Source of the DNA: an uncultured Candidatus Saccharibacteria bacterium
GTDB taxonomy: Bacteria > Patescibacteriota > Minisyncoccia > Phycocordibacterales > UBA12088
Assembly (NCBI GenBank): GCA_964409035.1
Contig: CAYPBQ010000004.1
Span: forward strand, 7,687 to 71,686
Direction: 5' to 3'
Length of the DNA stretch: 64,000 nucleotides
Program-made: the position numbers and the translations under genes
Shown here: piece by piece, positions 4,444 to 22,505 of the stretch
Layout: every line of letters starts with the position of its first letter
Position numbering within the stretch: position 1 is the first letter of the stretch
The notes under the pieces: model-generated
Seen by the model: the letters and a program-made list of their open reading frames with translations, nothing else
Databases searched by the model: none
What the model was told of the DNA's origin: nothing

Positions 4444-5487
4444 ATGAAGTTACTTATTTGCACGCAAAAGGTTGATAGCAATGATCCAGTCTTAGGTTTC
4501 TTTCATCGATGGATTGAGGAGTTTGCCACTAACTACGAAAAGGTCACCGTGGTGTGTCTTTATAAGGGTGAGTACTCACTTCCACAAAATGTGGAGGTAA
4601 TTTCTCTTGGCAAGGAACGAGGGGTGCCCAAAATTGAGTATCTGATACAGTTTTACCGCTCTATATTACTGTATAGAAAAGACTACACACATGTATTTGT
4701 GCATATGAATCCTGTGTATGTGGTACTGGGAGGAATAATGTGGCGACTCCTTGGAAAGAGAATTTCCCTTTGGTATACACATAAATCAGTCGATACAAAA
4801 CTTAGAATTGCAGAAAAATTGGTGCATCACATCTTTACCGCATCTGCAGAAAGTTTTAGATTGCCATCAAAAAAGGTGGTTATCACGGGACATGCTATTG
4901 ATGTAGGGGCATATGCATCGGTAGCACATGAGCAAAGTGCAAGACTTCGATTATCGGTTATTGGAAGAATCTCACCGGCAAAACGAATTGATGTATTTAT
5001 TAGGACAATTGCAGAGTTAAAGAAGAGGGGAGTCGATGTGGTCGGGACGATAGTGGGAGATGTTGGTACACCAGAGGATGCTCCATATCTTGGCGCAATG
5101 AAGCGTCTTTCGCAGGAACTTTCATGTAGTGAGAATGTGCAATTTGTTGGGGCAGTCTCTCATCAAAAGATTGTCCACTATCTAGAGCAGACTGATATAT
5201 TTTTACACACCAGCGAGACGGGAAGTATGGACAAGTCTGTGCTAGAGGCATTTGCTTGTGGAGTCACGGTGCTCTCCTCAAGTGAGGCGTTTGAAGATGT
5301 TTTGATGCCGTATGCGCTATCTCTTAAAGAGATGAGTCCATCTCATATTGCTCAAAAAGTAGAAGCAATAACGGTACTTCCAGAAGACAAGCGTGATAGT
5401 ATCAAAATATTCCTGCGAGAGTATGTTCAAAAGGAGCACGGCCTTAAGGCTACCATTAAAAAGATAGTGGTTACTATGGAATCATAG
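4444..5487 (+). CDS. Glycosyltransferase, GT4-like (GT-B)
   Basis: The C-terminal HTSETGSMDKSVLEAFACGVTVLSS motif resembles the GT-B sugar-nucleotide binding motif. N-terminal half is Rossmann-like. Confidence 0.6.
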   Translation: MKLLICTQKVDSNDPVLGFFHRWIEEFATNYEKVTVVCLYKGEYSLPQNVEVISLGKERGVPKIEYLIQFYRSILLYRKDYTHVFVHMNPVYVVLGGIMWRLLGKRISLWYTHKSVDTKLRIAEKLVHHIFTASAESFRLPSKKVVITGHAIDVGAYASVAHEQSARLRLSVIGRISPAKRIDVFIRTIAELKKRGVDVVGTIVGDVGTPEDAPYLGAMKRLSQELSCSENVQFVGAVSHQKIVHYLEQTDIFLHTSETGSMDKSVLEAFACGVTVLSSSEAFEDVLMPYALSLKEMSPSHIAQKVEAITVLPEDKRDSIKIFLREYVQKEHGLKATIKKIVVTMES

Positions 5488-5549
5488 ATTTTGTCTTTGT
5501 TGCGTATCTGTCTTTTCTTGCTAGGATTTGATATACACTGCTTCCGCAT

Positions 5550-7049
5550 ATGAATTCCGCTATTTCAACAATAGAGCGGTATGTAGAAAAAGCAACTAAC
5601 CACAGGCTTTTTTTTGTTTCTCTAGTAACAGTAGCTGGCTTAGCAAACCTCCTTCTGTGGATCTTTTCTGATGTTAAATTTCAAAATGATGATCAGTTCA
5701 TTCTGTATCGCTATATAGATAATCTGTTAGCCGGGGAGGGTTTCGTATATAACATTGGGGAAAAAGTACTAGGATCTACAACTCCATTGTTTACCATAGT
5801 GGTTGCAGCTGTTGCTTTTTTACTCCCATTTCTAAGTACGCCTACAGCACTCGCATTTTGCAACATTGCTTTCTTCTCATTTTCAGCGCCGTACTTTCAC
5901 CGTGTCTCAAGTCGTTTTCTATCGAAGGGATTTGCCGCCCTCGTGACATTTATATACATACTGCTTTTATCACGGACCGTGTTAGAGGGTATGGAGACAT
6001 CCCTCTTTCTCCTTCTGCTTTTTGCCGCGCTCTCGTACCTATATAGCGGCAAGCATGTACTTGTGAGTATTCTTATAGCGCTTCTCGTGCTCACTCGACC
6101 TGATGCCGGCATTATTGCCATCCTTATCGGTATTTTTTGGATTGCTACGCTCGGCATGCGGGAAACAGTGAGACTAACAACCATAAGCGTGAGTGTGTTT
6201 TTAGTGTGGGCAGTATTTGCGACTTGTTACTTCGGCTCATTCATTCCGCAGTCACTACTCACTAAACTCAACTCTGGAGATATTTATCAACTGCCGTGGT
6301 ATCAGGCAGCAAAGATACAAATAGCACACATCAGCAAACTTCTTTTGGGTAGGCTATTTGATTTTAATGCGACAATACTGAACATGGGATTTCATCTTAC
6401 TCCTATCGCGGGACTCATCGTGCTTGGTGCTTCACGGGTATCAAAAGTAATTGGCGGTTCGCTCATTGTGAGTATTCCGCTAAGTTACCTCCTGCTTTTC
6501 TCTCTATCTAACCCTATTATATTTCCTTGGTACTTATCGCAAACTGAGCCTTTTTGGATACTGCTTATAATGGTTGGTGTGGAGCGGCTACTTGCCTATA
6601 GCAGTAAGGTGTGGGTGAAGGTGGCTGTACTTTCTATTATAATTTTGGGTCCGCTCATGTTTTACCTTACAACAGCCTTCGGCTCCCACCCGCAACCAAA
6701 GGCAACGCTATTTGAGGTGGGGACATACCTCAAAGAACACATACGAGAGGGTGAGTCAGTGGGTATCGCGGATATTGGCATTGTGGGGTACATGACGGGA
6801 GCCTATGTTCACGACTTTATAGGGCTAGTATCCCCCTCGTCAGTGGCATTTTATCGACCTCAATCTTGTATACCAACTGATTCGTTTTATACGATACCGC
6901 CACTTCTTATCAATCATACAAACCCTGATTACGTAGTTGGGAGGAAAGACCAACTTGGAGCATGTTTTTATAACGGTGACGCCATCAACAAATACGCACT
7001 TGTATTTGTTGATACAAGCAGTATGGTAGAGGTGTGGCGTAAAAAATAA
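5550..7049 (+). CDS. Polytopic membrane glycosyltransferase, GT-C superfamily (ArnT/PMT family 39/83-like)
   Basis: At least 11 predicted TM helices followed by a soluble C-terminal domain. The architecture and the adjacent 4-TM ArnE-like gene match lipid-linked-sugar-dependent GT-C enzymes. Confidence 0.55.
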   Translation: MNSAISTIERYVEKATNHRLFFVSLVTVAGLANLLLWIFSDVKFQNDDQFILYRYIDNLLAGEGFVYNIGEKVLGSTTPLFTIVVAAVAFLLPFLSTPTALAFCNIAFFSFSAPYFHRVSSRFLSKGFAALVTFIYILLLSRTVLEGMETSLFLLLLFAALSYLYSGKHVLVSILIALLVLTRPDAGIIAILIGIFWIATLGMRETVRLTTISVSVFLVWAVFATCYFGSFIPQSLLTKLNSGDIYQLPWYQAAKIQIAHISKLLLGRLFDFNATILNMGFHLTPIAGLIVLGASRVSKVIGGSLIVSIPLSYLLLFSLSNPIIFPWYLSQTEPFWILLIMVGVERLLAYSSKVWVKVAVLSIIILGPLMFYLTTAFGSHPQPKATLFEVGTYLKEHIREGESVGIADIGIVGYMTGAYVHDFIGLVSPSSVAFYRPQSCIPTDSFYTIPPLLINHTNPDYVVGRKDQLGACFYNGDAINKYALVFVDTSSMVEVWRKK

Positions 7050-7050: not shown

Positions 7051-7413
7051 ATGGCATACCTACTGCTTATCATTGCGTTCTCATTGAATGCCTTAGCGAA
7101 CATACTTCTCAAATCAGCTGCAAGCATTGGAATATTTGGTTCTGTACTTGTTCCTCATGTGTTTGTCGTGCAAAACTGGAAACTTATTCTTGGACTTTCG
7201 TTTTTTGCTCTTAATGTTGTTTTTTACTTTCTCGCACTTAGGTCGTTATCACTTTCCGTCGCGTATCCCGTTATGGTGGTAATGACCTTTGTACTCGTTA
7301 ACGCAGGCGCAGCATATTTTTTTGGCGAGCAGATACATACCATACAAATAATTGGCTATGCACTGATGGTACTCGGCATCGTTCTTGTCTTAGGCTCAGT
7401 CGCCCGAGTATGA
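7051..7413 (+). CDS. 4-TM SMR/EamA-like small membrane protein (ArnE/ArnF-like candidate lipid-linked sugar flippase subunit)
   Basis: 120 aa with four hydrophobic helices (LLIIAFSLNALANILLK...). Start is 2 nt after the GT-C stop, and the gene ends in an ATGA overlap with the next gene. Confidence 0.55.
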   Translation: MAYLLLIIAFSLNALANILLKSAASIGIFGSVLVPHVFVVQNWKLILGLSFFALNVVFYFLALRSLSLSVAYPVMVVMTFVLVNAGAAYFFGEQIHTIQIIGYALMVLGIVLVLGSVARV

Positions 7414-8696
7414 AGTACTTTAAGGACCTTGCCATCACCCCGCTTACTGGCGCGCAGGTGATTCTTGATATCGATGGAACGCTCCTTCGAGATGGGGATA
7501 CTAGGGTTGGTAAAGATGAAGAAATACAACTGCGCAAGCTTTCGCAAATTGCGGACGTTTATCTTTTTTCAAATGGCGCAAGAGATAGATCGGCAATGCT
7601 CGCCAAGGAGTATGGTGTTTCTTATATCGATTCAATTAGAAAGAAGCCAAATAAGAAAGTCGCGACGAGCTTGCCATTTAGTCAAAAACGAGTGGTTATA
7701 GGTGATAAAGTACTCACGGATGGATTTTTCGCTCTTTTTACAGGAAGTTCATTTATACAGGTTGAACGTCTCACACAAACTAATCAAGCGCTCTTTACGC
7801 ATTTCGTTGATACGCTTGATAATCTCTTGTCGCCAATCATCCGGCCACTAATGCCACTACTTCATTACATCAGAATGCTTCGACCAGAGCAGTGGATTAA
7901 AAATTTACTCGTCTTCGCTCCTTTGTTCTTTGCGGGTGAGCTCTTTGATGTTGGTCTGCTTGGTAACGCAAGTATGGCCTTTATTGTGTTTTGTCTCGTA
8001 TCGAGTGCGGTATATATCATAAACGACGTTGTCGATACGGAAACAGACGCAAAGCATCCAATAAAGAGATTTAGGTCGCTACCGTCTGGGTCTGTGTCTG
8101 TTTTTGGCGCGCTAGCCTTTGCTGGTGTATTGCTGCTCTTCGCCTTTGCTGTTCTTTCATCCATTACGGCACTCATCCCGTACCTTACTTTTTACTTTCT
8201 GGCGAATGGCATCTATTCGCTCTTTTTAAAACATGTCGCGGTACTCGATATTGTCATTGTCGCGTCATTTTACGTGCTTAGAGTCTTAGTGGGAGGTGTC
8301 TCGACTAGTGTGTTTGTTTCTCTGTGGCTGCTCCTCGCGACGTTTTTTCTGGCACTATTTTTAGTAACTGGGAAGAGACGGGCAGAATTGCTTCATGCGC
8401 ATAAGCGAAAAGTACTTGAAGGCTATGCAAAAGAAACACTCGACTACTTTCTTATCAGCGCTGCACTGCTTTCAATTGTTACCTACAGCACGTGGGTGAT
8501 TCTTACCCATCCATCAATCATTGCAGTGGTAAGTGTCATGGTCGCTGTTGCAGCAATCTTTAGGGCTATCAATGTTCTGTTTCTGCATCCGAGTGAAGGA
8601 GAAAGTCCAGAAACTATTTTTCTTAAAGACAGATGGCTCTTTGTGTGTGCTTTGGCGTGGGGACTACTTATGGTCATGACATTTTACGGTGTATAG
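7410..8696 (+). CDS. Fusion protein: N-terminal HAD-family phosphatase + C-terminal UbiA-family polyprenyl-phosphate phosphoribosyltransferase (DPPR/Rv3806c-like)
   Basis: HAD motif I ILDIDGTLL, motif II-like VYLFSNGA and motif III-like VIGDKVLTD. UbiA part: RPEQWIKNLLVFAPLFFAG, NDVVDTETD (NDxxDxxxD) and KRFRSLPSG, followed by 7-8 TM helices. Confidence 0.7.
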   Translation: MKYFKDLAITPLTGAQVILDIDGTLLRDGDTRVGKDEEIQLRKLSQIADVYLFSNGARDRSAMLAKEYGVSYIDSIRKKPNKKVATSLPFSQKRVVIGDKVLTDGFFALFTGSSFIQVERLTQTNQALFTHFVDTLDNLLSPIIRPLMPLLHYIRMLRPEQWIKNLLVFAPLFFAGELFDVGLLGNASMAFIVFCLVSSAVYIINDVVDTETDAKHPIKRFRSLPSGSVSVFGALAFAGVLLLFAFAVLSSITALIPYLTFYFLANGIYSLFLKHVAVLDIVIVASFYVLRVLVGGVSTSVFVSLWLLLATFFLALFLVTGKRRAELLHAHKRKVLEGYAKETLDYFLISAALLSIVTYSTWVILTHPSIIAVVSVMVAVAAIFRAINVLFLHPSEGESPETIFLKDRWLFVCALAWGLLMVMTFYGV

Positions 8697-8717
8697 AAAC
8701 GTGGGTGTATAAGCAAT

Positions 8718-8747
8718 TGTCGGCGCCCTCTCAGGAGGGCGCCGACA
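8718..8747 (+). terminator. Perfect 13-bp stem hairpin (TGTCGGCGCCCTC-TCAG-GAGGGCGCCGACA) downstream of the HAD-UbiA gene
   Basis: Read from the sequence. No T-run follows, so function as an intrinsic terminator is uncertain. Confidence 0.4.
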
Positions 8748-8923
8748 GACTGGAGGGGAGACTACTTGCCGAGAATCCGACACAGTATCTCCCACAAATA
8801 ATAATACCTTTTGAGGAGCTGGGGTGGGGGTACAACTGCTGGATATAAAACACGCAACATTAATCATGTCAATGGTAATTTTTTGTTTATTTAGCATCAA
8901 AAAACATGGTACACTCGTAACAC

Positions 8924-10345
8924 ATGAGGTTTTTTATAACTGGAGGGTCTGGTTTCCTCGGCATCAATCTTGTTAGGTACCTTCTCAAAAGAGGGCATGT
9001 TGTTACGTCATACGACCTTGTTGCGTTTGATTATCCTGAAAAGGACGCCATAGTGTGGCACAAGGCTGACATTCGTGACTACCCAACCCTCGTTGAGGCT
9101 ATGAAGGGGAGCGACGTTGTCGTGCACTGCGCGGCTGCGCTCCCCTTGTACTCACCTGAAGATATACGAAGTACTGACATAATGGGTACTGATAACGTGG
9201 TAAAGGCAGCAAAGAGTAATGGTATCAAAAGAGTTATTCATATTTCTTCTACGGCGGTGTATGGTATACCCGATCATCATCCGCTCTACGAAACGGATAA
9301 GCTTGACGGTGTAGGGGAGTACGGTAAGGCAAAAATTGCTGCTGAGGAAATTTGTCTTGGGTATAGAAAAGAGGGAATGATCGTCCCCATATTGCGACCA
9401 AAATCATTTGTTGGACCTGAGCGCCTTGGGGTTTTTGCGCTCTTTTATGATTGGGCACTTTCTGGCGCGTGCTTTCCACTTATGGGTTCAGGGAAAAATA
9501 GATACCAACTACTTGATGTTGAGGATCTCTGTGACGTGATTTATATGTGCGCGATAAAAGATGACACAGTGGTGAATGATACTTTTAATATAGGCGCGAA
9601 AGTGTTCGGTACGATGAAAGAAGACTATCAGGCTGTGCTCGACGAGGCTGGATTTGGAAAATATGTAATTGGGATACCCGCATATCCAATGTTGGTTGCG
9701 TTGCGCATACTCGAGCGGTTACAACTCTCACCGCTCTACAAGTGGGTTTACGAAACCGCATTTAAAGACAGTTTTGTTTCTATTGAGAAAGCTGAGCAAC
9801 AACTTGGCTATACGCCAAAGTTTTCAAATAAAGATGCGTTGATTAAAAATTTCAGATGGTACAAAAACAATCTTGATTCATTTAGAGGAGAGAGTGGTAT
9901 ATCGCACCGAGTCCCATGGAAGCAAGGAGTACTCGCATACTTAAAGCCGCTATTTAGTGATCCCTACCGTGTTCTTAAATACCTCACAACAGGAGGTATT
10001 GGTGCAATTACCAACCTTGGCATTACGTATCTATGTGTGGATGTATTTGATTTCGTTGTCCTTTTGGGATCATCAATCGGCCTTGGTGTTTCTATGGTCA
10101 TTGGATTTCTTCTTCAAAAGTTTTGGACGTTCTCAGAATCAACCCTTTCACGCCTCCATACGCAGTTTGGTATGTACCTAAGTGTTTCCTTTGTTGGTCT
10201 TTTATTCAACGGCTTTTTGGTGTACTTCCTTGTCTCTATGCATGTCCACTACCTCATCGCGCAAACCGTAAGCATCGCCGCAGTAGCATTATTGAGCTTT
10301 TTTGTGTATCGTTCTATCATATTTACTTTCAAGAAGAGAGACTAG
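8924..10345 (+). CDS. Fusion protein: NAD-dependent epimerase/dehydratase (SDR) + C-terminal GtrA-like 4-TM domain
   Basis: N-terminus ITGGSGFLGINLVRYLLKRGH is the Rossmann GxxGxxG of the extended-SDR epimerase family. C-terminal ~120 aa (YLTTGGIGAITNLGITYLCVDVF...LLQKFWTF...) has 4 TM helices typical of GtrA family. Confidence 0.65.
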   Translation: MRFFITGGSGFLGINLVRYLLKRGHVVTSYDLVAFDYPEKDAIVWHKADIRDYPTLVEAMKGSDVVVHCAAALPLYSPEDIRSTDIMGTDNVVKAAKSNGIKRVIHISSTAVYGIPDHHPLYETDKLDGVGEYGKAKIAAEEICLGYRKEGMIVPILRPKSFVGPERLGVFALFYDWALSGACFPLMGSGKNRYQLLDVEDLCDVIYMCAIKDDTVVNDTFNIGAKVFGTMKEDYQAVLDEAGFGKYVIGIPAYPMLVALRILERLQLSPLYKWVYETAFKDSFVSIEKAEQQLGYTPKFSNKDALIKNFRWYKNNLDSFRGESGISHRVPWKQGVLAYLKPLFSDPYRVLKYLTTGGIGAITNLGITYLCVDVFDFVVLLGSSIGLGVSMVIGFLLQKFWTFSESTLSRLHTQFGMYLSVSFVGLLFNGFLVYFLVSMHVHYLIAQTVSIAAVALLSFFVYRSIIFTFKKRD

Positions 10346-10349
10346 TGAT

Positions 10350-11366
10350 ATGGATACCAAAAAAACATATTTCATTTCTGGGGTTGCCGGTTTCCTTGGG
10401 AGCCATTTAGCCGAACATCTTTTGAAAGAGGGTAATCGGGTTATTGGAAACGATACCCTCATTGGAGGATACCTCGATAATATCCCAGAAGGGGTTGAAT
10501 TTCATCAGGTAGACTGCCTCGACTTTGCCCGAATGAAGGAGCTCATGAAAGATGTTGATGTGGTGTATCACACAGCAGCGTACGCATATGAGGGATTGTC
10601 TGTTTTTTCACCTCATGTTGTTTGCGAAAATGTTTTTAGCGCTACTACCTCAGTGTTAAGCGCGGCAATCGCAAACAAGGTAAGACGGTTCGTATACTGT
10701 TCGAGTATGGCTCGCTACGGAGAACAACCGCAAACACCATTTACCGAGGATATGACACCTCGTCCGCAGGATCCTTACGCGATAGCTAAACTTGCCGCTG
10801 AAGACCAAGCTCGTCTTCTTGGCGCTATTCACGGCATGGAGGTGGTTATTGCCATTCCACATAACATCATTGGTCCTCGGCAGAAGTATGATGACCCGTA
10901 TAGAAATGTTGCCTCTATTATGATTAACCTCATGCTCCAGGGTAGGCAACCTGTTATATATGGGGATGGAAACCAGATGCGATGCTTCTCATTTGTTAAT
11001 GATGTTGTTGATCCATTAAAAAAGCTCGCCTACTTGCCTGAGGTTGTTGGTGAGTCCATCAATGTCGGACCTGATGAAGAGTTTGTGACGATCAATGATC
11101 TTGCAAGGGTTATCGCGGATCAACTCAACTTTACCCTAGAGCCAATCTACATGCCGGGGAGACCACAAGAGGTATTGAAGGCAACATGCAGCGCTGATAA
11201 GGCTCGAAGGCTCTTGGGTTATAAAACCACTACCACTCTTGAGGAAGGCATAGCCGAGATGATTGCGTACATACAGAGCCGTGGTCCAAAGCCTTTTAGC
11301 TACCACCTCAATCTTGAAATTGTAAACGACAAAACACCCAAGACGTGGAAAGACAAGATTTTCTAA
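10350..11366 (+). CDS. NAD-dependent nucleotide-sugar epimerase/dehydratase (extended SDR)
   Basis: ISGVAGFLGSHLAEHLLKEGNRVIGND (GxxGxxG) with YxxxK-type catalytic region. ATG at 10350 immediately after the upstream stop. Confidence 0.75.
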   Translation: MDTKKTYFISGVAGFLGSHLAEHLLKEGNRVIGNDTLIGGYLDNIPEGVEFHQVDCLDFARMKELMKDVDVVYHTAAYAYEGLSVFSPHVVCENVFSATTSVLSAAIANKVRRFVYCSSMARYGEQPQTPFTEDMTPRPQDPYAIAKLAAEDQARLLGAIHGMEVVIAIPHNIIGPRQKYDDPYRNVASIMINLMLQGRQPVIYGDGNQMRCFSFVNDVVDPLKKLAYLPEVVGESINVGPDEEFVTINDLARVIADQLNFTLEPIYMPGRPQEVLKATCSADKARRLLGYKTTTTLEEGIAEMIAYIQSRGPKPFSYHLNLEIVNDKTPKTWKDKIF

Positions 11367-11377
11367 TATACTTCTAC

Positions 11378-12112
11378 ATGTATCAAGGAAAAAAGGTGAG
11401 TATAGTTTTTCCAGTTTATAACGAAAAGGAAAACATATATAACGCAATAATCGAATTTTCTTCACACTCGCACGTTGATGAAGTGATTGCTGTTGATAAT
11501 AACTCTTCAGATGGATCCGACGTTGAGATTAAGCGTACAAATGCTCGGTATATAAAAGAGACTCGACAAGGATACGGTGCCGCTCTAACGCGAGGTATGC
11601 GCGAGGCTACGGGAGACATCATCGTGACGGTAGAGCCGGATGGTACCTTTTTAGCAAAAGATCTCGATAAGCTTCTCGTATACAGCAGAGATTTTGGAGC
11701 GGTGATTGGCACACGTACTGTTCGAAGTCCGGTATGGTCGGGAGGCGATATGGGCGCTAACATGGGCTTTCATATGCGAATGGGAAATTGGATGGTAGCA
11801 AAACTACTTGAATACCTCTTTAATGGGCCATCATTTACCGACGTGGGTTGTACATTTAAGCTCATTCACAAAAGTGACTACGACAAACTCAAAGACACGC
11901 TCATGGTAACAGGGTCACACTTTTCTCCCCATCTTATGATGCGTATACTTCAGTTTAAGATTCCAGTAATAGAGGTACCTGTGCACTATCGCGCGCGCAT
12001 CGGCACTTCTAAGATTACTGGGAAATTAAGTAAGACAATACGACTAGCGTTGAGAATGATACGGCTCATTGTAGAGCAACGCTTAAAATCAGTACATGAT
12101 CCCATTTCATAA
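11378..12112 (+). CDS. GT2 glycosyltransferase (polyprenyl/dolichyl-phosphate sugar synthase-like)
   Basis: VSIVFPVYNEKENI...VIAVDNNSSDGSD...DGT matches the GT-A fold DxD region of Dpm1/GtrB/ArnC-like enzymes. About 245 aa with no C-terminal TM. Confidence 0.7.
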   Translation: MYQGKKVSIVFPVYNEKENIYNAIIEFSSHSHVDEVIAVDNNSSDGSDVEIKRTNARYIKETRQGYGAALTRGMREATGDIIVTVEPDGTFLAKDLDKLLVYSRDFGAVIGTRTVRSPVWSGGDMGANMGFHMRMGNWMVAKLLEYLFNGPSFTDVGCTFKLIHKSDYDKLKDTLMVTGSHFSPHLMMRILQFKIPVIEVPVHYRARIGTSKITGKLSKTIRLALRMIRLIVEQRLKSVHDPIS

Positions 12113-13817
12113 GGTGATTGATTGGGTACAAGGCGCGCGTATACCGCTACTTATCCTGCCTTTTTTGGTAGGTTTCTATGCTGTGGTGACACGACTTATG
12201 GGGGTAGGGCAGTTGTACCATCAGGACGAGCATCGTTGGGCCATCGCGGTAAATGGCTCGTATGGCGTTTGGGACGCTATTCCGCACCCGATATTCTCAA
12301 AGCTTATATACATGGGGATTGGTGCCATAACTGGCTACGATTACTTGAGAGTTGTACCCCTCATACTGAGCCTTCTTACGCTCACCCTTATAATGGTTGT
12401 CGCGCAGCGTGCATACGGCACGCTCACCTCGCTCATTGCTGGGTTATTGTATGCTACTACTACCTACGCACTTATTGGATCGTTGCAGATAGATATTGAT
12501 GGAGCGTTTCTTCCATTCTTCACTATTCTCTCTATTGGCGCCTATCTGGAATGGCAACGCGCCACAGCTAAAAAAACAACATACGGAGCTTTGGGCGTTC
12601 TGCTTTTAGCTATAGTGCTAGGGCTTATGACAAAGCTCAGCTTTGTGCTCGTTCCGGCAGCCATAGGTGTTGACGCGCTTCTTCGGTATCAAAAGGTACG
12701 AGATGTGCTTATGAGTGTCCGCATCATGCTGCCACTTGTTCTGTTCGGAGTACTCGGTGCTTTTTTTGTATGGACGTATTGGGGTGATACACGAGCATTT
12801 TCATACATAGAACACTTTGTCGCTTTTAGCGGGCGCGACTATACACAGGTCTTATTCCAACTTGCTAAGGTGCTCTTCTATACGTCGCTTTTCATCCCTC
12901 TACTCATTGTCCTGGGGCTTCAGCATGTTCGACAACTATCAGTATGGTATCTATTTCTTGCCGCGAACATACTCTTTTATTTCGTTATATTTGATTTTAC
13001 CCACCGCACATTCGATAGGTATCTCATGTTTATCATTGTGCCAGGTGTCATCATTGCGGCCTACGTACTCAGCAGGGTGTATGCAGCAATGACGAATAAG
13101 GCAAGACAGGTTATGGTATACAGCTTTTGCATTGTCGGAGTAATCGCGACAAGTATAACGCACATTGTTTTTTCTTCAGCACACACACTTCTTGCGCTTA
13201 CCCCAAAGAGTAAATTTATTGAGGCATTGAAAACATTTGAGTGGAATATCCTTTTTCCGCTCTCTGGAGGATCCGGCCCCATTGGATTCTATTTGCCGCT
13301 TGATGGAATGCTGTACCTAGTCCTTGCCTCGTTCTTTTTTGGTGTCTTGTTTATCCTTGATCACTTAATAAAGAAGCAGGGAAGTGTTGCCCCCTTACTC
13401 CTCGGTGCGTTTATTGCTACTACGGCAGTACACAATGGCTTTGTTACCTTTGAATACCTAACCGGCGGCTACTATGGAAATACAACAAAAGTAGCTACGA
13501 CGATACTATCTGCGTTACCTGACGGAACAAAAGAAGTAAGGACGTATAATGATATTGCCGCATACGAGTTGTATGAGAGGGGTGTGTACGCTGGACGCTT
13601 CTACCCACATGAAGCATTCTTTGAAGCAAATGAAAAAAGACTCAAAGCATATATTGGTCTTTACATGATTGTCGACATGCCGCACCTTAATCCGGACCAA
13701 CTGTTTGGTAGATTTTTTTCAGCATGCAGCGTTGTCGCAACCACTTCAGACAAGTACATAGAAGGAAAATTGGTTTTTTGTGATGAACGGGCGCGACGCA
13801 TGTTTGAAAATAATTAA
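12096..13817 (+). CDS. Second polytopic GT-C family membrane glycosyltransferase (PMT/ArnT-like)
   Basis: More than 12 predicted TM helices. The loop-1 acidic motif YHQDEHRW resembles the conserved DE motif of PMT/ArnT-type GT-C enzymes. 17-nt overlap with the GT2 gene. Confidence 0.5.
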   Translation: MIPFHKVIDWVQGARIPLLILPFLVGFYAVVTRLMGVGQLYHQDEHRWAIAVNGSYGVWDAIPHPIFSKLIYMGIGAITGYDYLRVVPLILSLLTLTLIMVVAQRAYGTLTSLIAGLLYATTTYALIGSLQIDIDGAFLPFFTILSIGAYLEWQRATAKKTTYGALGVLLLAIVLGLMTKLSFVLVPAAIGVDALLRYQKVRDVLMSVRIMLPLVLFGVLGAFFVWTYWGDTRAFSYIEHFVAFSGRDYTQVLFQLAKVLFYTSLFIPLLIVLGLQHVRQLSVWYLFLAANILFYFVIFDFTHRTFDRYLMFIIVPGVIIAAYVLSRVYAAMTNKARQVMVYSFCIVGVIATSITHIVFSSAHTLLALTPKSKFIEALKTFEWNILFPLSGGSGPIGFYLPLDGMLYLVLASFFFGVLFILDHLIKKQGSVAPLLLGAFIATTAVHNGFVTFEYLTGGYYGNTTKVATTILSALPDGTKEVRTYNDIAAYELYERGVYAGRFYPHEAFFEANEKRLKAYIGLYMIVDMPHLNPDQLFGRFFSACSVVATTSDKYIEGKLVFCDERARRMFENN

Positions 13818-13867: not shown

Positions 13868-14494
13868 ATGACATGGCGTCTCTCAATTTTACGCTCGGAA
13901 CAGTATAAGGCGCTTCAACGCATTACCTTTATGGGTAAAGTGCTCGACCTTGGTGGAACCAAAGATGCCGTCTATCACCGGATGATAAACGGTTCTGGAA
14001 CTTTTTTGGTTGGAAACATTTCCCCAGCGTCAAACCCAGACATACTTTTCGATGCTCAAAAACCTTTTCCGCTAGAAAATGAATCGTTCGACAACATCGT
14101 GTGTCTCAATGTGCTTGAGCATGTATATGACTACAAGCCACTCCTCACTGAGTCATACAGAGTGCTAAAGAGTAGTGGAAGTATGGTTGCCTCTACGCCA
14201 TTTATGTATAGACTACACGGGTCACCTGATGATTTTTTTAGGTATACACCTTCTGCGTTAAAAAAAGCATTCACTGATGCTGGATTTAGAGAGGTTGTAG
14301 TAACCAATCTAGGCAAAGGCCCTTTTTCAATTTTTTGGCAGAGTGTATGCGGCGCTGTTCCCACAGTATTTCTGAGGACATTTTTTCAAGCTGTATTTGT
14401 TGGTATAGATACCGTGTTATCTATACTGAGTAGTCGGTATAAGCGAAACGCTGAACACTTACCGCTCGGGCTATTTGTTGTCGCTAAAAAATAA
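13868..14494 (+). CDS. Class I SAM-dependent methyltransferase (Methyltransf_11-like)
   Basis: VLDLGGTKD (motif I), VCLNVLEHVYD (motif post-II), LKSSGSMV. An extended -10 (TGCTACAAT) at about 13850-13858 may be the promoter. Confidence 0.65.
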   Translation: MTWRLSILRSEQYKALQRITFMGKVLDLGGTKDAVYHRMINGSGTFLVGNISPASNPDILFDAQKPFPLENESFDNIVCLNVLEHVYDYKPLLTESYRVLKSSGSMVASTPFMYRLHGSPDDFFRYTPSALKKAFTDAGFREVVVTNLGKGPFSIFWQSVCGAVPTVFLRTFFQAVFVGIDTVLSILSSRYKRNAEHLPLGLFVVAKK

Positions 14495-14500
14495 TCTTGT

Positions 14501-16192
14501 ATGCGTACGCACTATTTATTCAAGGCTGAGGGGGGCGCAGTAAAGGCGGAAAAGGGAATGCTCAGTGAGTACACGAGTGGAGAGGTAACTATATATTCAC
14601 ACGGACTTTCTGATGCCGTGATTAAAGAAATACTCCATTCGTATAAGTCTGAAGGCCTTATACCGTACGTAGATTCACTCACGATAAGTACCTTTTTGTG
14701 TATTATCTCTGATACACAGAAGGGAACCATCATTGTCATTAACGATAAATTCGGGAATAACGAAATATATTATCTCAAAACAAAAACTGGATTTTATCTC
14801 TCTGATTCACTGTCGGCTCTATTTGACTCTGCTAATATTACGCCTGAGGTTGATGTAGTTTCTGCGTATGAGCTCCTTTCATTTTTTACTATTCTTCCAC
14901 CTCGTACAATATATAAAGAGGCACAAGCAGTACCTGTGGGGAGTATGCTCACTCATTCATCAGAGGAAACCACATGCGTACGGTACTGGAACCTTGAGAA
15001 GAGGCTTTCAGATAAAGCAACAGACTATGAAGCACACGTTAATGCGTACCGGAAGATCTTTCATGACACAATCAAGCAAAGCGCTGATGGCAAGGTAGCT
15101 GTGGCGCTTTCGGGTGGTATTGATTCGGGTGGTATTCTTGGGGTCCTTACAGATATAAAAAAGTCTCCAGTACCGAGTATCTCGGTGGGAGCACAAGGTC
15201 CTAATAGTCATGATCTTGTAAGTGCCCGAAAGACCGTAGCCCATTTTGCATCTCCCAATGTTGAGTTGTACCCTGAGGCAAAATCATTCCTCTCACTTCT
15301 TGCATTTGTTGCGAAGAATATACAACAACCAATTAGTGTTGAAATGATACTTTCATGTTCGCCTGTATATAAGAAAGCAAAAGAGATGGGATATGAAAAG
15401 CTTTACTTTGGCTACGGCACGCAGCTACTGCTTGGCAACTTAAAGTCTGCACAATTTGAATACGCAACTCGTCTTTATGAGAAGTATCTTCCAAGAATTA
15501 TCCTCAATCCCTTATACTTACTCTATGCAAAGTACAAGGGTTTTTCAGAAACTAGAGTGGCGTACTTACTTGCTTCATCATGGCGGGAGCGTTTTGGATA
15601 TGCAAAGGGGGCACTCTACACAAGAGAAAAGCATTTATTTAAGGCACTCCCACAAAACTTTTTTGATGAGGTAACAGCGCACATCGCTCCTATCGAGGCG
15701 AGCTCGATTGCCCGAAGTGACGCTTTTGTCATTATGGAGATAACAAGTTGGATTGAATGCCAACAACAAAAAGATGGTCACGCAATCGCGCGAGTGTTTG
15801 AGATGGAGTCAATTGCTCCGTGGAATACTCCAACGGTTGCAGAAATCATGTTCCGTACATCAGATGAGATGCGACGACGCAATAAGTGGCAAAAGCAACT
15901 CATTCGGGACATGCTTAAACCATTTGTGCCTGAGCACCTCTACACAAGAGGGGGGAATTCACTCCTTGTTCCGTACACAACTCTGTTTGAAGAATATCGT
16001 CCTGTGCTGATTGCATACCTGAAGGGGAACAAGCTTATACAAAAACTTATTGATATGGATAGGTACGAAAAGGATTACAACACCCTTCCTGAGCCTGGGC
16101 TTAGTCTATTGCGTCTTACGAGCCTTGCGCTATGGTATGACGGCAAGCATGATAAAAATCATTTAGAAGAATTTGAGTCTCAAATAAAGTAA
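14501..16192 (+). CDS. Asparagine synthetase (AsnB)-like amidotransferase/ATP-pyrophosphatase, lacking the N-terminal Cys nucleophile
   Basis: PP-loop VALSGGIDSGGILGVL (SGGxDS). The N-terminal domain resembles the Asn-synthase glutaminase domain, but the protein does not begin with MCG. Confidence 0.6.
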   Translation: MRTHYLFKAEGGAVKAEKGMLSEYTSGEVTIYSHGLSDAVIKEILHSYKSEGLIPYVDSLTISTFLCIISDTQKGTIIVINDKFGNNEIYYLKTKTGFYLSDSLSALFDSANITPEVDVVSAYELLSFFTILPPRTIYKEAQAVPVGSMLTHSSEETTCVRYWNLEKRLSDKATDYEAHVNAYRKIFHDTIKQSADGKVAVALSGGIDSGGILGVLTDIKKSPVPSISVGAQGPNSHDLVSARKTVAHFASPNVELYPEAKSFLSLLAFVAKNIQQPISVEMILSCSPVYKKAKEMGYEKLYFGYGTQLLLGNLKSAQFEYATRLYEKYLPRIILNPLYLLYAKYKGFSETRVAYLLASSWRERFGYAKGALYTREKHLFKALPQNFFDEVTAHIAPIEASSIARSDAFVIMEITSWIECQQQKDGHAIARVFEMESIAPWNTPTVAEIMFRTSDEMRRRNKWQKQLIRDMLKPFVPEHLYTRGGNSLLVPYTTLFEEYRPVLIAYLKGNKLIQKLIDMDRYEKDYNTLPEPGLSLLRLTSLALWYDGKHDKNHLEEFESQIK

Positions 16193-18566: not shown

Positions 18567-19844
18567 TTAATTTGGTGTAGTAAATATCTTGTTTAAATAT
18601 ATCGAGCCTAGCCCAGCTTGTAGGATGCGCGCACCGATGCGGGCGACAATCGCACCCATGATGCCAAAGAAGGCAATACCAATAACCAGTGAACAGATTT
18701 GAATCACTGACCCAGTGATTTGTAGTGTGTATAGCTCCCTTACTTTTTTGTGTGCTTTTAGAATGGTATTTGGGATAGACATAAGCGCCCCAAGTATGGT
18801 GAGTGAGAGTAGTTGAGTGTAGGGGATACTCGCAAGATATTGTGGAAAGAGTAGTGCAAATATATATGGAGCAAGTAGGGCATAGATGCCAGCAATGGCA
18901 AGGAGGAATACACCAAAAAGCATCATTCGAGCATAGATAGTGCGTCCTATCTCATTGATTGAACGTTCTGCAAACTTTGGCAGCGCAACAGTGCTTATCG
19001 TGCGCGTCATGTTGCGTATGTAGTCGGGAAATAGGGTAGCAAAGGTGTATATCGCAAGCTCAATCGGTCCTAAAAAGTAGAATACTAAGACCTTGTCTAT
19101 GTGGTTGGTGATTACATAAAAACCATTTATGTAACTAAGGTGTTTGCCGTACTCGATGGTGTCTGTGTGTGTTGCGCCATCAACTAATACCTCGTGGTAC
19201 TTGTTTACGACAAACATAAGCATTATCGCGTGTGCTGCGGTATAAAACGCAAAGTATGCAATCACCAGCGAGAGTAGCTCTGTGGAGTAAAACAAGGCGC
19301 TCACAACACCTAGGGTGCCGGCAATATGCGCAAGCGTGACATACATACTTGTTCGCTTGAAATCCTTTTTTCCACTTAGGTACGATGAGTACATCTGTAC
19401 AGGCTCAAATAGAGGGAGGAATACCGCAGCGACAACTAACGCAAGTGCTAGTTCAGTATGTTGCTCTACTACATAGTAATAGATGGCAATACCTAATGCG
19501 GCAACTGATGCAAGGACACCCCAACGCATGCGAACCATAAGGCTATATGCAAAAACTCCTCTTTCATTAAGCGCGACCGCTCTTACAACTGATGTTGCAA
19601 GACCTGGTAGGGTAAGAGCACCCAATACACCAGCAACAGAGAGAATGAATCGATAGTTACCAAAGACTTCAGGAGGAATGAGGTTGGCAAATGCATAGGA
19701 TAGAATGAGCCCTGATGCACCAGTAATCAGTTGCCCGAAAGTAATCCAAAACCCTCCACCCAGGAGGTATTTCATGTCGGTTTTGGTGTACCGCTCGGAT
19801 TTTTTCAGTATGACAAGAAGGCGGTTTTTTAGGGATGTGAGCAT
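18567..19844 (-). CDS. Wzx-like oligosaccharide flippase (MOP/MATE superfamily polysaccharide biosynthesis protein)
   Basis: 425 aa with 12 predicted TM helices. The N-terminus (GGGFWITFGQLITGASGLILSYAFANLIPPEVFG) is typical of the Polysacc_synt/Wzx family. Confidence 0.65.
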   Translation of the reverse strand: MLTSLKNRLLVILKKSERYTKTDMKYLLGGGFWITFGQLITGASGLILSYAFANLIPPEVFGNYRFILSVAGVLGALTLPGLATSVVRAVALNERGVFAYSLMVRMRWGVLASVAALGIAIYYYVVEQHTELALALVVAAVFLPLFEPVQMYSSYLSGKKDFKRTSMYVTLAHIAGTLGVVSALFYSTELLSLVIAYFAFYTAAHAIMLMFVVNKYHEVLVDGATHTDTIEYGKHLSYINGFYVITNHIDKVLVFYFLGPIELAIYTFATLFPDYIRNMTRTISTVALPKFAERSINEIGRTIYARMMLFGVFLLAIAGIYALLAPYIFALLFPQYLASIPYTQLLSLTILGALMSIPNTILKAHKKVRELYTLQITGSVIQICSLVIGIAFFGIMGAIVARIGARILQAGLGSIYLNKIFTTPN

Positions 19845-19902
19845 GTACAGTATTGTAACTCTCGATTCGCAATAGGGATACTGCCGTGGTATAGTTTTTC
19901 CA

Positions 19903-22068: not shown

Positions 22069-22096
22069 TTGACAAAAGATACTTATTTGCTATAAT
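22069..22096 (+). promoter_or_regulatory. Near-consensus sigma70-type promoter: TTGACA - 16 nt - TGCTATAAT (extended -10)
   Basis: TTGACA at 22069-22074 and TGnTATAAT at 22088-22096, read directly from the sequence. Confidence 0.6.
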
Positions 22097-22102
22097 AGTT
22101 TT

Positions 22103-22174
22103 GTGAGTGCCTCGAAAGTTGTGAGGCTTCCAAGAAAATCTACGAAAACGCCCCCTCGGGGGCTTTTTCGTTTT
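22103..22174 (+). ncRNA. Candidate ~70-nt small RNA or attenuator leader: two hairpins, the second a GC stem followed by TTTTTCGTTTT
   Basis: Hairpin 1 is GCCTC-gaaagttgt-GAGGC (22109-22127). Hairpin 2 is GCCCC-ctcg-GGGGC (22150-22163) followed by a T-run, a typical intrinsic terminator about 70 nt downstream of the consensus promoter. Confidence 0.3.
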
Positions 22175-22205
22175 ATGGCTCGCATAGCTAGTAGCTAATA
22201 GACAT

Positions 22206-22505
22206 GTGCGATACACTCTCTTTATGGCGGTTACTCAAAATAATGATGTCCAATTTGATGAGGGAGGGGATGCTAATCCTCTTTTTAATAACCATGGTTC
22301 AGGAATGGTTACTCTTTTGATGCGCTACTCATATGGGCGCATCAGTACACCCTCGCAAGCGTCACTGGTGCTTTTATTGATGAGTGTCTGCTTTATTGTT
22401 GTATCGCTATGGATTGCTTTTGCAAATTCTAAACAAGCAGAGTATGAACCGGTCCCTGTAACGGGAGGGGTGAGTGGTGATGTAAACTGGCCACCAGTAC
22501 GGTAG
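22206..22505 (+). CDS. Hypothetical small membrane protein (99 aa, one TM helix)
   Basis: ORF between the terminator and the pilin gene, with TM segment ASLVLLLMSVCFIVVSLWIAFA. No homology recognised. Confidence 0.3.
   Translation: MRYTLFMAVTQNNDVQFDEGGDANPLFNNHGSGMVTLLMRYSYGRISTPSQASLVLLLMSVCFIVVSLWIAFANSKQAEYEPVPVTGGVSGDVNWPPVR

Follow-up and report, generated by a model that had tools for sequence, protein, structure and literature searches.

The genes at positions 7051-13817 of the window (the whole 64-kb stretch of DNA analyzed), together with the ORF at 5550-7049, probably form a 'three-component' module for polyprenyl-phosphate-linked pentofuranose glycosylation, within a larger Patescibacteria (CPR) surface-glycan locus. 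The core module consists of an SMR-like 4-TM protein, a HAD-PPPRS fusion, an NAD-dependent SDR (SDR_A) and an AftB-like GT-C. Very likely, the cluster makes a lipid-carried pentofuranose donor and then decorates a surface glycan with it. An initial annotation of this DNA had described a lipid-linked pentose pathway of fused enzymes reproducing the actinobacterial decaprenyl-phospho-arabinose (DPA) pathway. The making of a pentofuranose donor from PRPP is supported, but the cluster is not a copy of the DPA pathway.

Organization of the cluster

The ORF check and the profile searches recovered every ORF and domain that had been named, with the ORFs at the positions initially given. All lie on the + strand and are closely spaced (gaps of -17 to +50 nt), the sole exception being a 227-nt gap after position 8696, between the HAD-UbiA and SDR-GtrA genes. 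Inside this gap is a perfect, GC-rich 13-bp hairpin (8718-8747, unstranded), found once in the 64-kb window and without a T-tract on the + strand. It is possibly a transcript boundary or processing site.

The HAD-UbiA protein

The protein encoded at 7410-8696 joins a HAD phosphatase domain (aa 1-145; 7410-7844, + strand) to a UbiA-type polyprenyl-phosphate 5-phosphoribosyltransferase with 8-9 TM segments (PPPRS/DPPRS-like; aa 150-428; 7857-8696, + strand). Three DPPR-synthase models gave the UbiA half 200.6, 188.8 and 157.6 bits in the NCBIfam profile search, the best of them (DPPRS, NF008978; E 3e-59) narrowly missing its equivalog cutoff of 207. The structure of M. tuberculosis Rv3806c (8J8J) aligned with it end to end (aa 152-418; E 9e-39), and the sequence does contain RPEQWIKN and NDVVDTETD. 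The alternative that the domain is an ordinary prenyltransferase for quinones, haem or lipids, in a cluster unrelated to pentoses, is effectively refuted. The Pfam match (UbiA, E 4e-19) reaches the general family only, but the models for quinone, haem and GGGP prenyltransferases (UbiA, CyoE and GGGP) gave about 30 bits or less, which agrees with the earlier placement of the domain closer to DPPR synthase. Rv3806c was also the sole solved structure family matched at E<=0.01 among PDB sequences, and the operon of a Dojkabacteria relative, ordered SDR_A-UbiA-HAD-RpiB-PRPP synthetase, holds both PRPP synthetase and RpiB. The gene content of this operon favours PRPP as the donor.

The HAD domain matched the YqeG HAD-IIIA model (E 7e-13; NCBIfam, aa 17-143, E 8e-12), and its orthologues match Pfam PGP_phosphatase (PF09419) above the gathering score. 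Its catalytic positions are D20-x-D22-G-T, S54-N55, K79 and G98-D99-K100...D104. No variation was seen among 19 diverged homologues in DxDGT, SN, K or GDKxxxD of the HAD part, nor in NDxxDxxxD or KRxxE of the DPPRS part, and the catalytic Asp is thus kept. Judged by its sequence, the domain is of the GEP4/YqeG PGP-phosphatase type, a lipid-headgroup phosphatase family and a different HAD subfamily, and it is predicted to strip the 5-phosphate from polyprenyl-P-ribose-5-P. The DPPRS scores and the invariant motifs support the proposal that a single polypeptide is both synthase and phosphatase. Its fusion is not unusual, as had been claimed, but the CPR norm: the same fusion of about 425 aa is shared by some 80 of the 120 top database clusters, all from Patescibacteria wherever named.

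Candidate flippase and AftB-like GT-C

The SMR-like 4-TM protein (ArnE/ArnF-like; 7051-7413, + strand), whose stop overlaps the HAD-UbiA start, matched ArnE (E 5e-6) and ArnF (E 6e-6); Pfam SMR, TMEM234 and EamA matches were weak. Orthologues sharing 32-63 % identity adjoin the UbiA gene in 12 of the 17 CPR loci examined. The protein is a candidate polyprenyl-P-pentofuranose flippase, with an SMR assignment made on weak scores (E ~1e-5).

GTC1 (5550-7049, + strand) has about 10 TM segments and a soluble C-terminal domain. It had no Pfam match, but residues 26-90 matched the NCBIfam AftB model (E 3e-9), and a four-sequence profile searched against all PDB sequences recovered AftB only (9DLF, E 9e-10). 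D47-D48 align with AftB D61-D62, of which D62 is catalytic, and T182-R183-P184-D185 with the phosphate-binding R221; both are invariant in the family. GTC1 is a candidate pentofuranosyltransferase that would use a lipid-linked donor outside the membrane. A large polytopic ORF was located no more than 6 kb away in 14 of the 17 CPR loci.

SDR_A and its linkage to PPPRS

SDR_A (aa 1-345 of the 8924-10345 protein; 8924-9958, + strand) is an extended GalE-like NAD-dependent SDR, which matched Pfam Epimerase at E 2e-37. Its GxxGxxG and S-Y133xxxK137 motifs do not vary, and no dehydratase-type Asp-Glu pair was found in the SDR_A sequence. The fold (AF2 model, pLDDT ~90) is shared with ordinary nucleotide-sugar epimerases, decarboxylases and dehydratases. 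It is the gene neighbourhood that suggests action on lipid-linked ribose, and SDR_A is a candidate epimerase or oxidoreductase on polyprenyl-P-ribofuranose.

Across CPR, where SDR_A identity is 60–84 %, the gene directly adjoins the UbiA/PPPRS gene in 14 of 15 reference loci, mostly less than 100 nt apart, and both the gene order and the state of fusion differ between loci. All three reverse look-ups likewise placed the two genes side by side. Orthologues with 43-50 % identity lie near DPPRS genes on four haloarchaeal, one Streptomyces and one Nonomuraea replicon (within about 0.6 kb in five of the six; about 3.5 kb in Natronococcus CG52). In the SDR phylogeny SDR_A forms its own clade, and at least three SDR types neighbour DPPRS genes across phyla: SDR_A, a rhizobial/Ilumatobacter sister clade and an SDR_B-like type (Fimbriimonadales).

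By tblastn, no DprE1 or DprE2 homologue was detected (best E 0.3) in the 64-kb window, where the only FAD_binding_4 protein is MurB. DprE1/E2 were found in 0 of 15 CPR loci versus 32 of 65 non-CPR loci. The absence of an FAD-dependent DprE1 from the window was thereby confirmed, and the suggestion drawn from it, that one NAD-dependent epimerase acts or that the product is ribofuranosyl, is supported. Near DPPRS genes, close SDR_A orthologues and DprE1/E2 never occur together. Sister-clade SDRs (30-36 % identical) were found with DprE1/E2 in loci L047, L049 and L059; therefore, this clade does not duplicate a 2'-epimerase.

The GtrA domain and a second branch

After a linker of about 8 residues, the SDR_A ORF continues into a GtrA-like 4-TM domain (aa 347-473; 9962-10345, + strand) that matches PF04138 (E 2e-15) over model positions 1-117 of 117. 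AF2 modelled a confident SDR and four long helices (347-373, 379-401, 405-438 and 443-472; pLDDT ~70), and both the fusion and the predicted 4-TM GtrA fold of its tail agree with the initial description. A lost stop codon, through a sequencing or assembly artefact, would fit the 118 of 120 best-scoring SDR_A clusters that are unfused, with proteins of about 345 aa ending where the linker begins. However, the ORF is uninterrupted, the identical protein is recorded on three contigs, and an independent sample holds a 75 % identical protein with the same fusion and gene order (GtrA domains 52 % identical); this sibling contig refutes the artefact for all practical purposes.

The fusion is thus real, though it is present in two genomes only, and it is probably incidental. 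In the L013 relative GtrA is fused to a GT4 instead, and in other CPR genomes it is a separate gene adjoining GT2; the window's domain is 27-35 % identical to the stand-alone or GT4-fused GtrA genes of L001, L003 and L013. Because the fusion is limited to two genomes, a GT4 fusion exists and GtrA elsewhere stands beside GT2, it says little about DPA-type translocation, to which it had been taken as a pointer; the conserved flippase candidate is the SMR-like protein. The GtrA domain is probably a membrane anchor and/or flippase and a partner of the GT2 branch. The fusion may be a lineage-specific junction of two branches that would at least tether SDR_A to the membrane.

SDR_B (10350-11366, + strand), a second extended, epimerase-like SDR (Pfam Epimerase, E 8e-47; GDP_Man_Dehyd over the full length), is 27 % identical to SDR_A, falls outside its clade and is absent from the conserved CPR core. 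It is probably a nucleotide-sugar enzyme supplying GT2 (11378-12112, + strand; Glycos_transf_2, E 6e-19), a soluble protein of the polyprenyl-phosphate hexose synthase type (GtrB/DPM1/AglJ-like). Its matches to AglJ (E 3e-18) and to Dol-P-hexose transferase (E 2e-14) covered almost the whole model, and hydropathy revealed no TM segment. GTC2 (12096-13817, + strand), with at least 9 TM segments and a soluble C-terminal domain, scored near the PMT_2 threshold (22.6 bits; relatives 25.3 and 19.5; cutoff 26.1) and had no match among PDB sequences. Its D44-E45, directly after TM1, is invariant, and it is a probable PMT_2/ArnT-like GT-C.

Most likely, the GtrA domain, SDR_B, GT2 and GTC2 would constitute a second, polyprenyl-P-hexose branch of the Gtr/Arn type. 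The second SDR and GT2 had been assigned to the pentose pathway; both genes are present but are better read as part of this separate branch. Similarly, of the two GT-Cs and the ArnE-like protein proposed to handle the lipid-linked donor, GTC1 and the SMR-like protein are retained, but GTC2 fits better in the hexose branch. The pairing of GT-Cs with donors is ambiguous: GT2 adjoins or is fused to a GTC1 homologue in L003 and L013, and it overlaps GTC2 in the window.

Identity of the transferred sugar

We tentatively consider, with somewhat less than even confidence, that SDR_A corresponds to C. youngae O2 ORF13 as a C3 epimerase and that the donor is polyprenyl-P-xylofuranose. ORF13, a GalE-like cytoplasmic SDR that carries TGxxGxxG and YxxxK and is encoded beside a HAD-PPPRS, is the only characterized epimerase of such architecture (PMC11127046). 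Kelly et al. (2024, PMC11127046) used a mutant, complementation and NMR to show that a single SDR epimerase converts Ribf to Xylf. A 34 % identical SDR_A relative is found in the Rhizobium CCGE531 locus, listed in the same paper as a candidate system with epimerases. However, ORF13 may belong to any of the three or more SDR types that adjoin DPPRS genes.

It is somewhat unlikely that SDR_A is a single NAD-dependent 2'-epimerase replacing DprE1/DprE2, giving a DPA-like route to a D-arabinofuranose surface glycan. The arabinofuranosyltransferase AftB is the sole detectable solved-structure relative of GTC1, with catalytic residues kept, and GTC1 also matches the AftB-position gene of Amycolatopsis loci carrying DprE1/E2. 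The mutual exclusion of close SDR_A orthologues and DprE1/E2 points the same way, as does the Dojkabacteria operon, which mirrors the step order of the mycobacterial DPA route, SDR_A standing where DprE1/E2 would act. Nevertheless, every known-structure glycan surveyed pairs Araf with DprE1/E2 and a single SDR with Xylf (PMC11127046), and a single-SDR 2'-epimerase for polyprenyl-P-ribose is not described in the literature searched. GT-C homology cannot fix the sugar, because the characterized GT-C takes Ribf and Xylf donors alike (PMC11127046). An arabinose end product, one of those initially proposed, is not favoured over xylose, the product of the only characterized single-SDR partner of PPPRS.

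It is unlikely that SDR_A leaves the lipid-linked pentose untouched and that Ribf is hence transferred. The specific form of this reading, in which SDR_A is a glycan-backbone nucleotide-sugar enzyme merely travelling with the module, is distinctly unlikely. In fold and motifs SDR_A does look like a standard UDP-hexose 4-epimerase, and epimerase-free Ribf systems exist in C. youngae O1 (PMC11127046) and on a Lactococcus plasmid (GT-C, DPPRS, HAD and GtrA). Against this, SDR_A stays beside PPPRS throughout CPR classes, in haloarchaea and in actinomycetes, although all other neighbours change; its evolution is much slower than theirs (~70 % versus ~40 % identity); and it is the only sugar-modifying enzyme among the PRPP supply and use genes of the Dojkabacteria operon. 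A product of SDR_A other than Xylf or Araf is very unlikely.

Proposed pathway and comparison with known systems

At the cytoplasmic face, the UbiA domain would transfer ribose-5-phosphate from PRPP to polyprenyl phosphate, as its strong homology and conserved motifs suggest. The GEP4/YqeG-type HAD domain, with its conserved catalytic residues and a characterized analogue in C. youngae ORF15, would remove the 5-phosphate to give polyprenyl-P-ribofuranose. SDR_A, given its gene linkage, may then oxidize and reduce the lipid-borne ribose NAD-dependently to an epimer, without DprE1/DprE2. The SMR-like protein would flip the donor, and GTC1, with its catalytic Asp and phosphate-binding Arg, would move the pentofuranose onto an extracytoplasmic acceptor.

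The 'three-component' scheme of Kelly et al. (PNAS 2024, PMC11127046) comprises a HAD-PPPRS fusion, a flippase (SMR or MATE), a GT-C and an optional single SDR epimerase, and the fusion of a HAD phosphatase with a UbiA-type polyprenyl-phosphoribose synthase was demonstrated there biochemically. The pathway is not confined to Corynebacterineae, with which it had been associated, since DPPRS-like genes with partners occur across many phyla. Unlike the actinobacterial DPA pathway, the window cluster has SDR_A and no DprE1/E2. A system type known since 2024 now appears to be conserved in ultra-small Patescibacteria, with enzyme variants of its own.

Organization of the proposed pentose module

We consider it well supported that this region carries a real lipid-linked pentofuranose module, a variant of a system recently described in Citrobacter youngae (Kelly, Duong, Nothof, Lowary and Whitfield, PNAS 2024, PMC11127046). 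In C. youngae O1/O2 the parts are ORF12 (GT-C/GT136), ORF14 (a MATE flippase), ORF15 and the SDR epimerase ORF13. ORF15 consists of an N-terminal HAD phosphoribose-phosphatase (HAD-PRP) and a UbiA-type polyprenyl-phosphoribose synthase (PPPRS) and makes polyprenyl-P-ribofuranose (Ribf) from PRPP. The "three-component" system also includes a GT-C and a flippase, which is of the MATE type in C. youngae and of the SMR type in other candidate systems (PMC11127046). Judged by sequence, the window has every gene-level part: a putative PPPRS, a HAD phosphatase, a candidate flippase and a GT-C.

The ORFs of the initial annotation were all recovered with unchanged coordinates, every one on the + strand. 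Between successive module genes, stop and start codons overlap or are almost contiguous; the exception is a gap of 227 nt after 8696. This gap, the sole sizeable one of the cluster, holds a hairpin at 8718-8747 (perfect 13-bp inverted repeat, 10 G-C pairs, 4-nt loop). The hairpin may be a transcript boundary or a processing site; its coding strand has no T-tract, and no second copy was present within the 64-kb window.

The predicted synthase-phosphatase protein

The protein encoded at 7410-8696 (HAD-UbiA) has a YqeG-type HAD-IIIA domain at its N-terminus (E 8e-12) and a UbiA domain at its C-terminus. The latter scored 200.6 (NF008978, E 3e-59), 188.8 and 157.6 bits on three NCBIfam models of decaprenyl-phosphate phosphoribosyltransferase (DPPRS), against only ~30 bits or less on the models for 4-hydroxybenzoate, haem O and GGGP prenyltransferases, which bears out its initial assignment as DPPR-like. 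Its sole match among all PDB sequences was Mtb Rv3806c (8J8J; E 9e-39, aa 152-418 against 16-292 of 302). When 19 diverged homologues were aligned, the DPPRS motifs N205-D206-xx-D209-xxx-D213 (NDxxDxxxD) and K322-R323-xx-E326 were invariant, as were the HAD motifs D20-x-D22-G-T, S54-N55, K79 and G98-D99-K100...D104; the catalytic Asp of the HAD domain is thus present (D20 and D22).

The fusion, which had been presented as unusual, is real but less exceptional than proposed. Of the best 120 database clusters, about 80 are HAD-UbiA fusions of this kind, with roughly 425 aa, and where named they belong to Paceibacterota, Uhrbacteria, Zambryskibacteria, Komeilibacteria and similar groups; the fusion is the norm in the CPR (Patescibacteria). 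Other CPR arrangements place the HAD domain C-terminally (loci L029 and L043) or in a separate gene (L020, L021 and L095).

ORF15-type proteobacterial proteins (Rhizobium CCGE531, Ruegeria) scored 609-631 bits on NCBIfam PRK08238, and their HAD domain is a capped HAD-IB. In the window protein only the UbiA part matches PRK08238, and the HAD domain is of the compact HAD-IIIA kind; in four orthologues this domain exceeds the Pfam threshold for PF09419, the GEP4-type phosphatidylglycerophosphate phosphatase family. Because the HAD subfamilies differ (HAD-IIIA GEP4/YqeG versus capped HAD-IB), the CPR fusion is independent of the ORF15 type, and the domain comparison shows that the predicted synthase-phosphatase fusion originated at least twice, from different HAD subfamilies. 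Membership of a lipid-headgroup phosphatase family also suits the predicted activity on polyprenyl-P-ribose-5-P.

Several lipid-phosphate phosphatase families accompany DPPRS genes: HAD-IIIA, HAD-IB and PgpA and, as candidates in loci of archaea and Streptomyces, PHP or EEP. In a Zambryskibacteria locus (L003), a PgpA (phosphatidylglycerophosphatase A) gene at 11368-11823 lies between HAD-UbiA and the SDR gene described below.

SDR_A, the conserved partner of the putative synthase

The product of 8924-10345 combines an extended SDR (Epimerase, E 2e-37) with a C-terminal GtrA domain. In its SDR part (SDR_A, 8924-9958) the GxxGxxG motif (G7-G8-x-G10-F-x-G13), the Ser (S108-110) and YxxxK (Y133/K137) are invariant. 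The Asp-Glu pair used by 4,6-dehydratases is not present. A database search found SDR_A to be 69-73% identical to more than 100 unfused proteins of ~344 aa from many CPR lineages, and identity across the CPR is ~70% versus ~40% for the neighbouring genes. When an exhaustive phmmer search was made against 1.84 billion representatives, only 383 proteins were returned at E<=1e-30.

Linkage was surveyed in 80 reference-genome loci found by the HAD-UbiA profile (15 CPR and 65 non-CPR). An SDR_A orthologue (60-74% identity) was present in 14 of the 15 CPR loci, usually within 100 nt of the UbiA gene, and in a reverse look-up all three SDR_A orthologues picked from long contigs of other lineages adjoined a UbiA gene. 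Among the non-CPR loci, 32 of 65 had DprE1, nearly always with DprE2, and only one, in a Spirochaete-labelled MAG, had a close SDR_A. The initial annotation had reported no DprE1 homologue, and this held: tblastn with two queries each for DprE1 and DprE2 gave a best E of 0.3 in the 64-kb window and nothing in the 15 CPR loci. The only FAD_binding_4 protein in the window is MurB.

Outside the CPR, the best plasmid-database matches to SDR_A (43-50% identity) adjoin or lie near DPPRS-like and GT-C genes on four haloarchaeal replicons, one Streptomyces plasmid and a Nonomuraea replicon. Symbiosis plasmids of rhizobia carry relatives of 33-35% identity, among them one in the CCGE531 locus that Kelly et al. 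list. Neighbour-joining places SDR_A in a clade of its own, to which the rhizobial and Ilumatobacter sequences are sister; SDR_B, the second SDR of the cluster (10350-11366), falls far outside it at 27% identity. Together, these data define a clade that, in both Bacteria and Archaea, replaces DprE1/DprE2 as the companion of DPPRS-type enzymes.

In a Dojkabacteria genome (GCA_016927655.1, 6001-9863) the operon reads SDR_A-UbiA-HAD(PF12710 type)-RpiB-PRPP synthetase. It directly couples pentose-phosphate supply to the lipid-linked pentose module, and the presence of RpiB and PRPP synthetase supports PRPP as the donor.

SDR_A has the same architecture as ORF13-type proteins: it is an extended SDR, carries the GxxGxxG and YxxxK motifs and is encoded beside a putative PPPRS, the likeness being one of motifs and gene context. 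A Foldseek search with the model of the SDR-GtrA protein returned only generic extended SDRs (epimerases, decarboxylases and dehydratases) and did not discriminate function. Since the fold resembles ordinary nucleotide-sugar epimerases and their relatives, we infer the substrate of SDR_A from linkage and not from structure.

Two further database proteins were treated with caution. The apparent SDR_A-UbiA fusion P0332 was used as adjacency evidence only, as its linker and tail resemble out-of-frame high-GC translation; P0333, a distant SDR relative fused to PgpA, was given little weight as its best score was HpnA-like. In two Fimbriimonadales loci another type of SDR, 31-32% identical to SDR_B, lies immediately upstream of a DPPRS-like gene (L065, 9039-9950; L075, 7695-8618). 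As this type differs, at least three SDR lineages became neighbours of DPPRS. The rhizobial symbiosis-plasmid cluster is conserved between Rhizobium CCGE531 (L010) and S. fredii NGR234 (L093, pNGR234a, near nodSU); it contains an SDR_A-like gene, two SMR-like genes, a GMC oxidoreductase, a 658-aa polytopic protein, a second SDR and a HAD-IB/UbiA fusion. Its genes are unnamed and carry generic annotation only.

Candidate flippase and glycosyltransferases

The 4-TM gene at 7051-7413 is SMR/ArnE/ArnF-like with weak scores. Its stop overlaps the HAD-UbiA start, and it is kept in 12 of 17 CPR loci examined. Its product is the conserved candidate for the flippase of the pentose module.

GTC1 (5550-7049), a polytopic protein of ~10 TM segments, had no Pfam match. 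When a profile of four family members was compared with all PDB sequences, only the arabinofuranosyltransferase AftB (9DLF) was found (E 9e-10). The invariant D47-D48 of GTC1 aligns to AftB D61-D62, and the invariant T182-R183-P184-D185 to V220-R221-P222-E223. The AftB structure paper identifies D62, on the tip of JM helix 1, as catalytic and R221 as essential for binding the phosphate of the decaprenyl-phospho-arabinose (DPA) donor. Because the equivalents of both residues are kept, GTC1 is a credible GT-C dependent on a polyprenyl-P-pentofuranose donor. In 14 of 17 CPR loci a large polytopic ORF is found no more than 6 kb from the UbiA gene.

The second polytopic protein, GTC2 (12096-13817), a putative PMT_2/ArnT-like GT-C, has an invariant D44-E45 after TM1. 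Three family members scored 19.5-25.3 bits on PMT_2, just under the 26.1 cutoff. Its profile matched no PDB sequence and gave no similarity signal to GTC1 in a profile-profile comparison. An AlphaFold2 single-sequence model (pLDDT 41.7) was discarded before any fold search.

The SDR-GtrA fusion and a probable parallel branch

The tail of the 8924-10345 protein (9962-10345) matches PF04138 (GtrA) over model positions 1-117 of 117 (E 2e-15). AlphaFold2 gave a confident SDR (pLDDT ~90) followed by four long helices at 347-472 (pLDDT ~70), in agreement with the predicted 4-TM GtrA-like tail. The linker has only about eight residues, which would place the C-terminus of SDR_A at the membrane surface, a position compatible with a lipid-linked substrate.

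An identical copy of the protein occurs on three contigs, and a 75% identical one with the same fusion and gene order was found in an independent sample. The fusion is therefore genuine, though rare (2 of the top 120 clusters) and less exceptional than first proposed. Relatives from Paceibacterota and Zambryskibacteria have GtrA as a gene of its own, beside GT2 or beside an SDR_B-like gene. In L013, from a related CPR bacterium, a GT4 is the fusion partner of GtrA (522 aa, 5278-6846) and the GTC1 homologue that of GT2 (732 aa, 7807-10005); the parts of these glycan loci are repeatedly fused, with changing partners.

Coupling of an epimerase to a flippase was considered as the meaning of the SDR-GtrA fusion and judged weak, given the GT4 partner of GtrA in L013 and its association with GT2 elsewhere. 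As GtrA pairs with GT2 or GT4 in other genomes, we read GtrA, SDR_B, GT2 (11378-12112) and GTC2 as a second, Gtr/Arn-like branch, which would handle a polyprenyl-P-hexose. The SDR_A-GtrA fusion would then be the junction of two adjacent branches in a compact genome.

Surrounding genes

Nearby genes encode four GT4 enzymes, a methyltransferase, an AsnB-like amidotransferase, a Wzx-like flippase and a Wzy_C/TPR protein followed by a pilin-like gene. This setting suggests that the acceptor is a Wzx/Wzy-type surface glycan. The last three genes span 18567-23104: the flippase (Polysacc_synt) is on the - strand, the Wzy_C/O-antigen-ligase-like protein (721 aa) has TPR repeats at its C-terminus, and the type IV pilin-like gene (N_methyl motif) lies 457 nt downstream of it. 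Since the Wzy_C proteins include pilin O-oligosaccharyltransferases, the glycan could be pilin-attached. In a Peregrinibacteria locus (L095) the pentose module is followed by the same Wzy_C/TPR gene.

The class I methyltransferase and AsnB-like amidotransferase follow GTC2 at 13868-16192. Other CPR loci (L003 and the P0164 locus) have the same pair downstream of their module, and its recurrence suggests that the glycan is further modified by methylation and amidation.

A PKD and lamin-tail-domain protein at the start of the window (41-853) and an LCAT-like lipase/acyltransferase of 810 aa (23135-25567) flank the glycan locus and are likely secreted or surface proteins. A giant ORF of 4529 aa (41054-54643) has only a Peptidase_S74 domain, of the endosialidase chaperone/tail-fibre type, and a bacterial surface Ig-like domain recognisable, near its C-terminus; the three ORFs preceding it had no Pfam match. 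GC skew is positive across nearly the entire window and almost all genes are on the + strand. A scan of positions 1-64000 found no tRNA genes and no Rfam families at the gathering threshold, and thus no direct marker of taxonomy; the region is assigned to the CPR by the names attached to its nearest homologues.

Possible identity of the pentose and its significance

Xylofuranose (Xylf) is the product of the only characterised single-SDR system: in C. youngae serotype O2 a single cytoplasmic GalE-like SDR, ORF13, converts a Ribf side chain to Xylf, and glycans containing arabinofuranose (Araf) have DprE1/DprE2 homologues instead (PMC11127046). Araf would be compatible with the AftB-like GT-C and with the mutual exclusion of SDR_A and DprE1/DprE2. 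It is less likely that SDR_A acts elsewhere and that Ribf is the end product.

The more specific proposal is that SDR_A is a single-polypeptide, NAD-dependent polyprenyl-phospho-ribose 2'-epimerase, giving a route to D-arabinofuranosyl donors independent of DprE1/DprE2. We regard this as possible but rather doubtful. If it were true, the route would be conserved in much of the Patescibacteria and common to haloarchaea and some actinomycetes as well, and AftB-like GT-C enzymes would decorate surface glycans or proteins of these organisms with arabinofuranose. The regiochemistry of the SDR_A clade is worth determining.

Patescibacteria have tiny genomes from which most biosynthesis has been lost, and the composition of the cell surface through which they meet their hosts is poorly characterised. 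A dedicated module that would lead from PRPP to a lipid-linked pentofuranose is retained in many of their lineages. The prediction that follows is specific and testable: these surfaces would carry a pentofuranose (Xylf, Araf or Ribf) attached on the outer side of the membrane. Patescibacteria are not mentioned by Kelly et al. (PMC11127046), and no paper linking the CPR to this pathway was found in the literature searched. The SDR_A clade and the conservation of the module among Patescibacteria seem not to have been reported before, and both are experimentally tractable.

Comparison with known systems

The mycobacterial DPA pathway comprises Rv3806c (DPPRS), Rv3807c, DprE1, DprE2, Rv3789 and AftA/AftB/Emb. 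Like it, the CPR module would start from PRPP and has a DPPRS homologue (E 9e-39 against Rv3806c), a GtrA-family (Rv3789-like) protein in the locus and a GT-C resembling AftB in which the catalytic Asp and the Arg that binds phosphate are both kept. It differs in the phosphatase and in the epimerisation step, and its product may differ from mycobacterial arabinose. The mycobacterial phosphatase Rv3807c is a PAP2-type enzyme; no PAP2 domain was found among the cluster proteins scanned, and the CPR module has the fused HAD instead. Rv3807c is described as unrelated to HAD-family phosphatases (PMC11127046). In place of DprE1 (an FAD oxidase) and DprE2 there is a single extended SDR. The region is read as a variant of the more recently described system and not as a transplanted mycobacterial pathway.

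DPPRS clusters with DprE1/DprE2 also occur outside Actinobacteria, for example on Chondrinema and Ruegeria plasmids and in Pseudomonas aeruginosa pilin arabinosylation. Like the CPR module, they combine a DPPRS-like gene with GT-C genes, and Ruegeria also has a HAD-UbiA fusion and GtrA. They carry the FAD oxidase and short SDR pair, however, which none of the 15 CPR loci has.

In gene composition the 9962-13817 part resembles the Gtr system (GtrA/GtrB/GtrC), with a GtrA domain, a GT2 like polyprenyl-P-sugar synthases and a polytopic protein that may be PMT_2-like, and the SMR-like protein resembles ArnE/ArnF of the Arn system (ArnC/ArnE-F/ArnT). Unlike in Gtr and Arn, GtrA is fused to the SDR of the neighbouring pentose module, and SDR_B is an additional gene between GtrA and GT2.

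As in C. youngae, PRPP and polyprenyl-P would be converted to polyprenyl-P-Ribf-5-P, from which the N-terminally fused HAD is predicted to remove the 5-phosphate. By analogy, an optional single cytoplasmic GalE-like SDR would alter the pentose before flipping and GT-C transfer, with no DprE1/DprE2 involved. The two systems differ in the HAD domain (compact HAD-IIIA GEP4/YqeG of the PGP-phosphatase kind in the CPR versus capped HAD-IB in ORF15-like proteins), in the flippase candidate (SMR-like versus MATE) and in the GT-C (AftB-like, as classed by its AftB match, versus GT136). Furthermore, SDR_A is fused to GtrA in the window, unlike in the C. youngae system, and the host is a CPR bacterium. 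The general mechanism is already established, and the CPR module extends this known scheme rather than founding a new one.
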